From IMG/VR virus record IMGVR_UViG_2880395615_000002: DNA of 64,000 bases; one strand, given 5' to 3'. Source of the stretch: a virus (lineage: Duplodnaviria > Heunggongvirae > Uroviricota > Caudoviricetes). Shown piece by piece: positions 48,001-51,000 of the stretch. The position numbers were made by a program. Within the stretch, counting starts at the first letter, position 1. Each line of letters opens with the position of its first letter.

Positions 48001-51000
48001 GGTCTTCGTGTGAAAGGAGACAGCATGTGGCCCAGAATAAAATCAGGAGAATATGTACTCATTGAGCCTAACACCAAAGTATTCCCGGGTGATGAGGTGT
48101 TTGTCAGAACCGTTGAAGGACACAACATGATTAAGGTTCTTGGCTATGACAGAGATGGAGAATACCAATTTACAAGCATTAACCAGGATCACAGGCCTAT
48201 AACGTTGCCTTATCATCAAGTAGCAAAGGTGGAGTATGTAGCTGGTATTCTGAAGCAATCTCGCCATCTGGATGACATCGAGGCAAGGGAGTGGCTGAAA
48301 AGTTCGTGACTTCATCGTCACATAGCTGGTAACCAGTGGCCTGAAGAGACGTTTGGGTAAGGAGGATAGATGGCGTTCAATGACCTTGAATATCAAGCAG
48401 TAAAAAAAGAAGTTCACCAATTCATTGAAAGCATAAGGCCGCCTGAACATATCCGCAATGAACTGGATATTGTTTATAGCATCAATGACCAAACGATAGA
48501 TATCGGCGAACAGCGCCCCGTGTGGCAGGGCAATCCAGGTGAAACAAACATCCTGCCATCAGCAAGAATCAAGTACATACGTTCTCTGGATAGATGGAAA
48601 ATCTATTGGATGCGGAAGGATATGAAATGGCATCAGTACAGTACTGAACTTTCGCTGACTGATGCGCTTGAGCTTGTGCGTGCTAACCCGGATTGCTGCT
48701 TCTTCGGATGAGTGAAGAGACGTTTGGATGATGGATGGTCGCAGAGATGCGGCCTGATTCTAAAATAGGATATAAAAAATGAGAATACTAGGTGTTAGAG
48801 CGGCGCCCAAAGTTACATCTTTTGTTGTATATTGCACTAATGAGTCTGCACTCAAATGTGTTGATGTTATTAAAATACCTTCGACCTTAGACACACCAGA
48901 AAAATTAAAGTATGTGAGAAATAACATCCTCGACATTCTTAATTTATATAATGTTGAATTAGCTGCCATACGCGTTACTGAATCAAACTCTGATAATCTT
49001 AGCATTGACCGCCTTTATATAGAAGCTGTTATTCAAGAAGCATTTTCAAGCAGTGATGTAAGAAAATATTACACTATTAGAAAATCTGGCATGAAATCAT
49101 CATTGAACCTAACAGAGATCGAGTATAAAGAAATATTGAAGTCACACCGCAATATAAATGGAATCGATAATTCTGGTTTTACAACTGAAACAAATGAAGC
49201 TGTTTTGGCTGCACTATCTGCGGAGGTAAGGGGATGCTAACTCCATACAAAAGAGCTGATGTAGAATTCGAATGGATTAGTGATCTAGAAGAACAGGGTT
49301 GTTTTTCAAAAGTATATCTGGCTCATGACAGACACCTAGCTCATGACTTGGTGATTAAAGAAATAGAAAAAAAAGAAAACACTAACCACGACGACTACTT
49401 TAATGAAGCAAGGCTTCTCTATAAACATGCACATCCAAATATTGTGCAAGTTCAGTATGCTGCTCAATGTGAGAGCAATATCTATATAGCCATGCCATTT
49501 TATCATAATGGTTCGCTAAACCAATTAATGAAAAAAAATAATCTTACAAGCAGGGAGATAATACGGTATTCCATTCAATTTTTAAGTGGACTTTATCATA
49601 TACACTCAAAAGGTCTTATGCATTTTGATATAAAACCTAATAACATTATGATATCAAACAGAAATGAGGCCATGCTATCTGACTTTGGATTATCTCAGTT
49701 AGTCAATGAGGAATCGAGAGCTGCGCCTGAGTTTGGATATCATTTTCATGTGCCACCGGAATATTTTTCTTTATCAACAAATGATTATAATTTCACATAT
49801 GACATATATCAGGCAGGATTAACCATATATAGAATGTGTGTTGGACATGATAATTTTGAAAGAGAAAGATCTGCATTTAGCACGATTGAACAACTCAGAG
49901 AGTCGATAATTAATGGCTGCTATCCATTAAAAGAGTATCCTCCCCATATACATAAAAAATTAATAACAATAGTGAACAAATGCATTCATGTAGATCCAAA
50001 TGAAAGATATCAATCCGTACTAGATGTACTAAACGATCTCTCAGCTATAAGTGATGGCGTTCTTGACTGGCGTCTACAGATGACGAAACCAACTAACGGC
50101 ACATGCGAATGGCAAAAAAAGTCTGGGGACGCTATACTGTCTATAGTTTTTGACGCAGAAAATTCGTCTACTACTGGTTTTCGTTTATACGATGATGGGC
50201 GGAAAAGGCGTGCTACGAACTTAACAATATCCTCAGGATGTACCCCTACAAAACTGTATAGGTTATTAAAGGATAACTGATCATGAAAAAGCGCGAGGAA
50301 GTAAGCAAGCTGCCTCGCAGACGTGATGCAGCATTAGCGGTTCCCTACAAAAAAGATGAGTTCATAAGCCCTTCTGATGACAAAAAATTTTCAAAGGCGA
50401 AAAGTTTTACATCTACATCTCTAAAAGATAAATACTTTAAAATCTAGCCCGGCCTCAGCGCCGGGTTTTCTTTGCCTCACGTTCGCCCACCTAAAAAACA
50501 TAACCAATTGTATTTATTGATGTAACTCGCTAAACCATGCAGTTATGATCCCTGCCGCATAACCTTCATCAGCCACATTTTCAAAAATAAATTTCCTTAT
50601 ATATCAGAATCATACTTCGTAGAGTTAATAAATCACCAAAATTCGTACCAATAGTTCTTGATAATGTCGAACTATTGGTTCATTATTATCGTCGTCAGCA
50701 GGACGCATTACTCACCAGGGCGGTGAATATACAACGATTCGAATATGAATCTACGGCGCTGACAAAGCGCAATAACCAAAGTGAACTTTGGGGTGTGGTG
50801 AAGGGTTCATGGACGGGAATATGTCGCACGTAAAGCGGCGAGGCCTGCGGGACTATTGCCGAATTGAAGTAGGCCGAAACAGGTCGAAATGGGTCTCCCA
50901 CCTACCACACCACCAAAGTTCATCAGGAGGTCTATATGACACGCAGAACTCAGTTCAAAGGCAATTCACGTTCTCGTCGTCGTGAGCGTTTAAAGGCAAA

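Follow-up and report, generated by a model that had tools for sequence, protein, structure and literature searches.

The viral record IMGVR_UViG_2880395615_000002 (Caudoviricetes) was analyzed over a stretch of 64,000 nucleotides (nt), hereafter the window, in which four open reading frames (ORFs) on the plus strand lie between the cI repressor gene and a terminator: L0084 (48370-48711; 113 amino acids, aa), L0083 (48779-49240; 153 aa), the kinase gene stk (49234-50280; 348 aa) and L0081 (50283-50447; 54 aa, starting with MKKREEVSKLPRRRDAALAVPYKKDEF). Together they are the lysogen-expressed cI-to-terminator accessory region of the Shiga-toxin phage 933W. Our comparisons reveal that L0083, stk and L0081 (cassette genes A, B and C, respectively) constitute a self-contained and mobile unit, as is typical of defense cassettes, and that L0084 is an independent cI-linked accessory gene lying outside it. 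We hold it to be the probable explanation, on balance, that these three genes make up an abortive-infection cassette that shares the pRM-cI-tM transcript with the separate L0084, and in which L0083 would act as a non-cleaving sensor or scaffold and L0081 as a regulator of the kinase. The architecture of the cassette emerges directly from the comparisons; what L0083 and L0081 each do within it is what we infer. A first-pass annotation had placed all four ORFs correctly, as ORF113, ORF153, Stk and ORF54, and had proposed that they might belong to a multi-gene defense module; that proposal stands for L0083 and L0081, both of which behave as conserved partners of the kinase, and falls for L0084.

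L0083 and the Stk kinase form an obligate pair

Scanning one genome per species by pattern, we recovered 74 loci with relatives of L0083, which span Gamma-, Beta- and Alphaproteobacteria, Bacteroidota, one cyanobacterium and one myxobacterium. A Stk homologue lies directly downstream in all 74, its start at most a few nucleotides away from the L0083 stop codon, mostly with an overlap of 1, 4 or 8 nt; a few of these pairs are pseudogenized or cut by contig ends. The association is equally tight when approached from the kinase: among 80 IMG/VR contigs with relatives of Stk (39-100% identity), a match to the L0083 family sits immediately upstream in 77, that is, in every one of the 77 that could be assessed, the other three being two contig edges and one truncated kinase. 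Within the phage collection, L0083 is found in 41 records, 39 of them from 933W-type phages and the other two from SPbeta-like phages of Bacillus, and full-length matches to Stk fall in exactly those 41 records; the remaining phage kinases of the collection resemble Stk in the catalytic domain only, at less than 30% identity.

The pairing thus extends to Bacillus phage SPbetaL7. Its homologue of L0083 (35% identity) shares 4 nt with the frame of a 350-aa kinase; this kinase matches Stk at 40% identity over 331 residues, C-terminal region included, and has a 60-aa ORF after it. In both Elizabethkingia and P. aeruginosa, kinase homologues stand in the same L0083-kinase arrangement. Further, the pairwise identities of L0083 and Stk co-vary across the loci (Pearson 0.89, equaled in 0 of 999 permutations), and in the enteric copies both genes are under strong purifying selection (dN/dS 0.05-0.15; 0.05-0.10 for L0083 alone). 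L0083 and stk are accordingly an obligate pair.

A small third ORF follows the kinase

Downstream of the kinase, a third, small gene is found with comparable regularity. An ORF of 49-72 aa (median 60), with a start located between -20 and +30 nt from the kinase stop codon, is present in 66 of 68 non-redundant loci, as against 7.5 expected from shuffled sequence (binomial P ~1e-60). Most of the non-enteric versions share a basic N-terminus of the form K-I-K-N-D...Y-x-x-R-S-x-L, as well as a central D/E-F and a C-terminal aromatic motif, and the divergence of these versions follows that of the associated kinases (Pearson 0.78). The enteric homologues of L0081, which are 53-55 aa long and display the motif LPRRRDAALAVPY...KYFK[LI], retain their frame and length down to 40% identity with a dN/dS of 0.2-0.6, and are called by independent gene callers. 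L0081 itself, the enterobacterial version of this small ORF, is a basic protein (isoelectric point 10.0) with no match in Pfam, is under purifying selection and is assigned to the PHROG family phrog_4063; its description in the first-pass annotation as 'untracked' was mistaken, because the 1999 record of 933W already annotates it. L0081 is a real, constrained gene in a conserved position, and its common ancestry with the non-enteric small ORFs is plausible.

The kinase and its published role

The protein kinase domain of Stk (PF00069; approximately residues 17-260) is recovered with 158.8 bits against a cut-off of 31.7 (E 2e-46), and all the diagnostic elements of a Hanks-type kinase, namely the VAIK Lys, the alpha-C Glu, the HxD...N loop and the DFG motif, are in place, as the earlier annotation had surmised. 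The corresponding residues (K42, E58, H130, D132, K134, N137 and D150-F151-G152) do not vary across 24 diverse homologues and are conserved at 90% or above among 64 sequences. By comparison, the C-terminal ~80 aa are variable and poorly conserved save for two Trp residues, and residues 270-348 matched no solved structure by sequence. The PADLOC model PDLC04042 for the PD-T4-6 system also matches Stk (E 1e-37, residues 20-273), as do around 20 further PD-T4-6 models; these matches span residues 20-276, which is the generic kinase domain alone, and the Stk subfamily does not display the stand-alone single-gene architecture of PD-T4-6. A relationship to the Mad6 kinase of the MADS system was considered and rejected, the NF047741 score being 122 bits against a cut-off of 460 and mad genes being absent from the locus.

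The stk gene of the window is 100% identical to that of 933W, for which an excluding function is on record. Its co-transcription with cI goes back to Tyler et al. 2004 (as cited in PMC3564112). In the papers citing Friedman et al. 2011 (Mol Microbiol 82:567), Stk is presented as a eukaryote-like tyrosine kinase whose activity is low in uninfected lysogens, and which is activated by infection with phage HK97 and then aborts that infection; one of these papers adds that the phenotype needs kinase activity and that protein tyrosine phosphorylation appears upon infection. The link of Stk to phage exclusion drawn in the first-pass annotation is thus borne out by the cited literature. Both the kinase and its role in excluding HK97 are already known, and the published Stk system has its type example in the present locus.

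The neighbors of stk have received less attention. In lysogens of phi24B, whose immunity region is identical to the present one, vb_24B_13c (= L0084) and res (= L0083) are reported to be expressed, and cI, stk, vb_24B_13c and res show no rise on induction. The flanking ORFs L0084 and L0083 can therefore be taken as expressed genes, and the earlier view of the partner ORFs as uncharacterized is right in respect of function, none having been reported, and too sweeping in respect of expression. This expression in phi24B lysogens was all that our literature searches with the L0081, L0083 and L0084 tags, with DUF3024, and with RuvC-like proteins combined with kinases and anti-phage functions returned. 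The open-access literature that was searched describes the kinase alone and mentions neither its obligate RuvC-fold partner nor the small downstream ORF. The obligate three-gene architecture, its spread across phyla, including to a Bacillus phage, and the separation of the DUF3024 gene were described in no publication that we found.

Several 933W-type E. coli prophage contigs of IMG/VR (L131, L132, L135 and L137) carry a frameshifted or truncated stk, with a longest kinase ORF of 220-278 aa and a locus shorter by 1 nt, next to intact L0083 and L0081. The kinases of the genome loci L018, L027, L031 and L041 are likewise decayed.

L0083 has a RuvC fold with a replaced catalytic residue

Fold comparison assigns L0083 to the RuvC (RNase H-like) fold, at a sequence identity to the RuvC family (PF02075) of 12-15%. 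At the level of profiles it lies outside that family: the Pfam RuvC profile yields 14.2 bits against a cut-off of 22.2, and the NCBIfam model NF000711 yields 12.5 against a cut-off of 163. A sequence search against the chains of the Protein Data Bank returned no match. The RuvC catalytic tetrad of E. coli comprises D7, E66, D138 and D141, of which Asp7 is essential in established RuvC biochemistry. The equivalent of Asp7 in L0083 is R7, which is invariant in 61 sequences, and L0083 consequently lacks an intact tetrad. In the alignment, E66 falls provisionally near R65 and E68 of L0083; E140 is invariant and position 137 variable.

Searching 1.84 billion representative sequences with a profile of the L0083 family recovered 424 clusters at E <= 1e-3, and these are, among the matches listed, mostly stand-alone proteins of ~150-165 aa. 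Databases label L0083 as 'res' or 'RuvC-like resolvase' (phrog_3875, RefSeq). It differs from the RuvC family proper in that it is always paired with the kinase and not with ruvAB or phage recombination genes.

L0084 is a repressor-linked DUF3024 gene

L0084 is a full-length member of the DUF3024 family (PF11225; 106.5 bits against a cut-off of 24.9, residues 4-113), on which a literature search returned no papers, and matches the PADLOC single-gene candidate PDC-S43 (E 4e-41). Its distribution is distinct from that of the cassette: phage records with L0084 number 144, compared with 41 for the cassette, and about 100 records have it without stk. It is always adjacent to CI-type repressors, and in Salmonella phage SE1, in a phage of Morganella and in a prophage of Rouxiella the DUF3024 gene lies directly 3' of an unrelated CI-type repressor; Stx2 phage II holds a remnant. 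In the Rouxiella badensis prophage, there is a tandem pair of DUF3024 genes (3352-3693 and 4001-4342 of record L096) directly 3' of the CI-type repressor, which reinforces the picture of a repressor-linked family independent of the kinase. Conversely, lambdoid prophages of Salmonella and Klebsiella have the cassette directly after cI with no DUF3024 gene, viral contigs with a 97%-identical Stk are also found without L0084, and DUF3024 is present at just one of the 74 genome cassette loci, that of Proteus penneri.

L0084 is flanked by two perfect copies of a 15-nt direct repeat, TGAAGAGACGTTTGG, on the plus strand, the left one at 48342..48356 and the right one at 48713..48727, just 3' of the L0084 stop codon; these are the sole two matches in the window at up to 2 mismatches. 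The repeat may be a recombination scar or a junction motif for the swapping of cassettes 3' of cI, or else an RNA element. A Salmonella prophage without L0084 (record L088, 4440-4495) has two degenerate tandem copies of the repeat between cI and the cassette.

The structural model of L0084 (mean predicted local distance difference test, pLDDT, 90.5) consists of a helix, a five-stranded sheet and a second helix, for which no convincing structural relative was found. The model suggests a small protein-binding, non-enzymatic protein. A weak phmmer match (E 0.07) to AvrPto, the effector with which Pseudomonas syringae inhibits the Pto kinase, is probably due to chance, the fold being unsupportive.

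Transcript organization and identity with 933W

Positions 47600-50950 of the window are 100% identical over 3351 nt to 9434-12784 of the 933W record AF125520.1, and likewise to NC_000924.1 and many other Stx phages. The 933W immunity-region order, L0084-L0083-stk-L0081-tM between cI and nutL/N, is found intact, and the 1999 record AF125520.1 lists L0084, L0083, stk, L0081, 'tM, putative terminator for pM transcript', nutL and N; the phi24B record carries the same genes, with L0083 named 'res'. The transcript begins at pRM (pM; 47567..47594, plus strand), the maintenance promoter for cI and the genes downstream of it, whose position is taken from the annotation of AF125520.1 (2468-2495 of the 933W extract L001, to which 45099 is added to obtain the window coordinate). 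Its first gene is cI (47602..48309, plus strand), annotated as such and encoding the Pfam domains HTH_3 and Peptidase_S24. It is closed by the intrinsic terminator tM (50446..50477, plus strand), annotated in both AF125520.1 and HM208303.1, which is a G+C-rich hairpin of 8 pairs (6 GC) followed by TTCTTT and is the sole plus-strand terminator-like site between cI and N (50936). The prediction that the 54-aa ORF ends at a terminator is in accord with this, and the further prediction that the genes occupy the slot of lambda rexAB is upheld by synteny, the layout in both being cI, accessory genes, terminator, nutL and N.

The signals within the region also agree with what had been noted from its first inspection. 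L0084 is preceded by an AAGGAGG Shine-Dalgarno sequence, which is the strong ribosome-binding site ascribed to it, and L0083 is both AT-rich and overlapping with stk: the G+C fraction drops from ~0.44 to 0.31-0.36 at its start, and its frame shares 7 nt with that of stk. A mere 2 nt separate the stk stop codon from the start of L0081. In the record AP004402, a stretch within L0083, at approximately 49025-49105 of the window, bears the annotations of three 'putative operators' and a 'maintenance promoter for CI'. We reject these as a probable over-prediction because no operator-like site was found anywhere in 48370-50473 with the OR1 palindrome CGTACTTTCAGTACG at up to 3 mismatches, and promoter-like matches in the same region are at chance level only.

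Genomic settings of the cassette

The cassette is spread over several phyla, on phages, satellites, plasmids and islands resembling integrative and conjugative elements. Its neighbors in the 74 genomes are heterogeneous, including XRE/CI regulators, integrases, Tn7-like genes, HipA, CapP, a dGTPase and methyltransferases, and no fourth conserved gene was found near it in these genomes. In Raoultella and Pantoea the cassette lies within non-lambdoid islands. The Raoultella versions (L091, L092) adjoin a gene for a single-stranded DNA-binding protein and a P4-alpha-like primase (Zn_Ribbon_Prim, Toprim_3, DUF927), neighbors which indicate carriage by a satellite or integrative element and not by a lambdoid prophage. 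In Elizabethkingia anophelis (L079-L081) it is located between a LlaJI-type restriction-modification operon (methylase, AAA_5, RE_LlaJI) and ardA, on an element bearing serine recombinases; this locus looks like a compact defense island on an integrative element.

Relationship to known systems

The closest known system is 933W Stk itself (Friedman et al. 2011; Tyler et al. 2004), with which the present locus shares the same gene and complete nucleotide identity from cI to N. PD-T4-6 (PADLOC; Vassallo 2022) and Staphylococcus Stk2 (Depardieu 2016) are likewise Hanks-type, phage-triggered abortive-infection kinases, but they are single genes, whereas the Stk subfamily has a C-terminal domain of its own and two coupled partner genes. 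Neither gene A (L0083) nor gene C (L0081) has a model in PADLOC 2.0. The RexAB system of lambda and Hex of phage 434 share with the 933W region both slot and logic, in that phages are excluded by pRM-driven accessory genes, which lie after cI and before a terminator upstream of pL/N. Rex is a two-component system of a sensor and a membrane channel, whereas 933W has a soluble kinase cassette, and homology to RexA or RexB was found in none of the four proteins with Pfam and PHROGs, leaving the slot as the only common feature. HipBA, HipBST and the kinase-kinase-phosphatase (KKP) system of Pf phages also feature a small upstream gene overlapping a kinase that is kept inactive until infection; HipBST is also a three-gene system and KKP is also prophage-borne. 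The cassette differs from these in lacking a helix-turn-helix antitoxin and a phosphatase: Stk belongs to the Pkinase family and is not HipA-like, and with L0083 adopting a RuvC fold, the HipA_C plus helix-turn-helix antitoxin combination of HipA-type toxin-antitoxin systems is not encountered. L0084, for its part, is a full-length member of DUF3024/PDC-S43, which is a candidate system only.

Alternative interpretations

The simplest alternative to a three-gene system is that Stk is a single-gene abortive-infection kinase which senses the trigger itself, with L0083 and L0081 being co-inherited but dispensable for exclusion, and perhaps serving another phage function or merely fine-tuning expression. 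It accords with the papers citing Friedman et al. 2011, which credit HK97 exclusion to Stk alone, with the PADLOC match of the kinase domain to PD-T4-6, a single-gene family, and with the description of Stk2 as a single locus. However, co-occurrence is ~100% in both directions across phyla, the reading frames overlap, the genes co-diverge and L0083 is under strong purifying selection; because a dispensable passenger would not be expected to show linkage of this kind, we consider this alternative unlikely. Less likely still is one that inverts the roles, with L0083 as the effector, a RuvC-type structure-specific nuclease phosphorylated by a sensor Stk and cutting phage or host DNA. The invariant Arg at the Asp7 position and the sub-threshold Pfam score speak against an active nuclease, as does the published phenotype, which according to the citing literature is kinase-dependent and marked by tyrosine phosphorylation on infection.

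The grouping of all four genes as one defense module, with which the first-pass annotation had begun, draws on their presence on one transcript in 933W-type phages, on a Proteus prophage lineage that also has DUF3024 beside the cassette, and on the status of DUF3024 as a PADLOC defense candidate in its own right. Nevertheless, the absence of L0084 from 73 of the 74 genome loci and from cassettes with 97% Stk identity, the direct succession of cI and cassette in Salmonella and Klebsiella, the phage records with L0084 and no stk, the differing G+C content of L0084 and the 15-nt direct repeat flanking it combine to make this very improbable. We give the least credence of all to the idea that L0083 is a genuine Holliday-junction resolvase serving phage recombination, placed beside stk by chance. 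The database annotations and the RuvC fold would fit such a role, but the gene is on the lysogenic transcript and not among recombination genes, its catalytic Asp is replaced, and it is found only beside Stk-family kinases, including on non-phage chromosomal islands.

Proposed mechanism

Returning to the three-gene abortive-infection cassette, the low-GC L0083-stk-L0081 segment lies on the lysogenic pRM-cI-tM transcript and is inherited and translated as a coupled unit. Stk is the effector, which, according to the published work, stays silent in the lysogen and is switched on by infecting HK97, resulting in abortive infection. L0083, with the invariant Arg in place of the catalytic Asp7, would serve the kinase as a non-cleaving sensor or scaffold; what it binds may be branched or recombination DNA, or else the recombinase of the phage. 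L0081, being small, basic and fast-evolving, could be a kinase inhibitor, pseudosubstrate or adaptor, and probably acts with the equally variable C-terminal domain of the kinase.

A possible clue to the trigger comes from HK97, gene 41 of which is reportedly the activator of Stk. At 24175-24780 of the HK97 genome (records L086/L087), genes 40 and 42 enclose erf, mislabeled 'Gp40' in AF069529, and from this gene order HK97 gp41 is an Erf-type single-strand-annealing protein. A junction-binding fold coupled to a kinase that answers a phage recombinase makes for a coherent, albeit weakly supported, picture. We put forward as a tentative elaboration, itself rather doubtful, that the dead-RuvC L0083 might read branched DNA or Erf-coated intermediates and activate Stk as a dimeric scaffold, with L0081 and the C-terminal domain setting the threshold. 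An HK97-type Erf was unseen in the flanks of 159 carrier loci, of which around 25 have RecT/Bet-type proteins, in a survey of 4-5 kb flanks with one Erf query.

Several points weigh against the proposed three-gene system and its mechanism. The exclusion phenotype has been credited in print to stk alone, and the other kinase defenses, Stk2 and PD-T4-6, are described as single genes. For L0083, any retention of the other RuvC acidic residues (E68, E140) is provisional, and binding to DNA or to the kinase is a prediction. For L0081, a hidden Markov model of the non-enteric small ORFs fails to detect the 933W protein, hhalign between the two returns a probability below 1%, and direct sequence comparison with the small ORF of SPbetaL7 gives E 0.5; as profile methods show no link, the inclusion of L0081 is based on position, size and charge, and we claim positional conservation alone. 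Finally, the survey of carrier flanks for an HK97-type Erf is too shallow to carry weight.

Implications

The Stk of 933W was among the first described prophage kinases that abort the infection of another phage, and the comparisons presented here recast a story of one gene as a defined system of three components, with DUF3024 set apart as a distinct repressor-linked gene. They also imply that the labels 'PD-T4-6' and 'RuvC-like resolvase' mis-describe such loci, because the single-gene architecture denoted by the one and the catalytic tetrad denoted by the other are both wanting. For the sensing of HK97 by Stk, the cassette now offers a testable sensor candidate, especially as HK97 gene 41 codes for an Erf protein. 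If the tentative reading of L0083 as a dead RuvC that senses phage recombination is true, it would represent a new principle of antiphage sensing, in which a DNA-junction sensor is coupled to protein phosphorylation, and which would extend from Bacillus phages to Proteobacteria and Bacteroidota.

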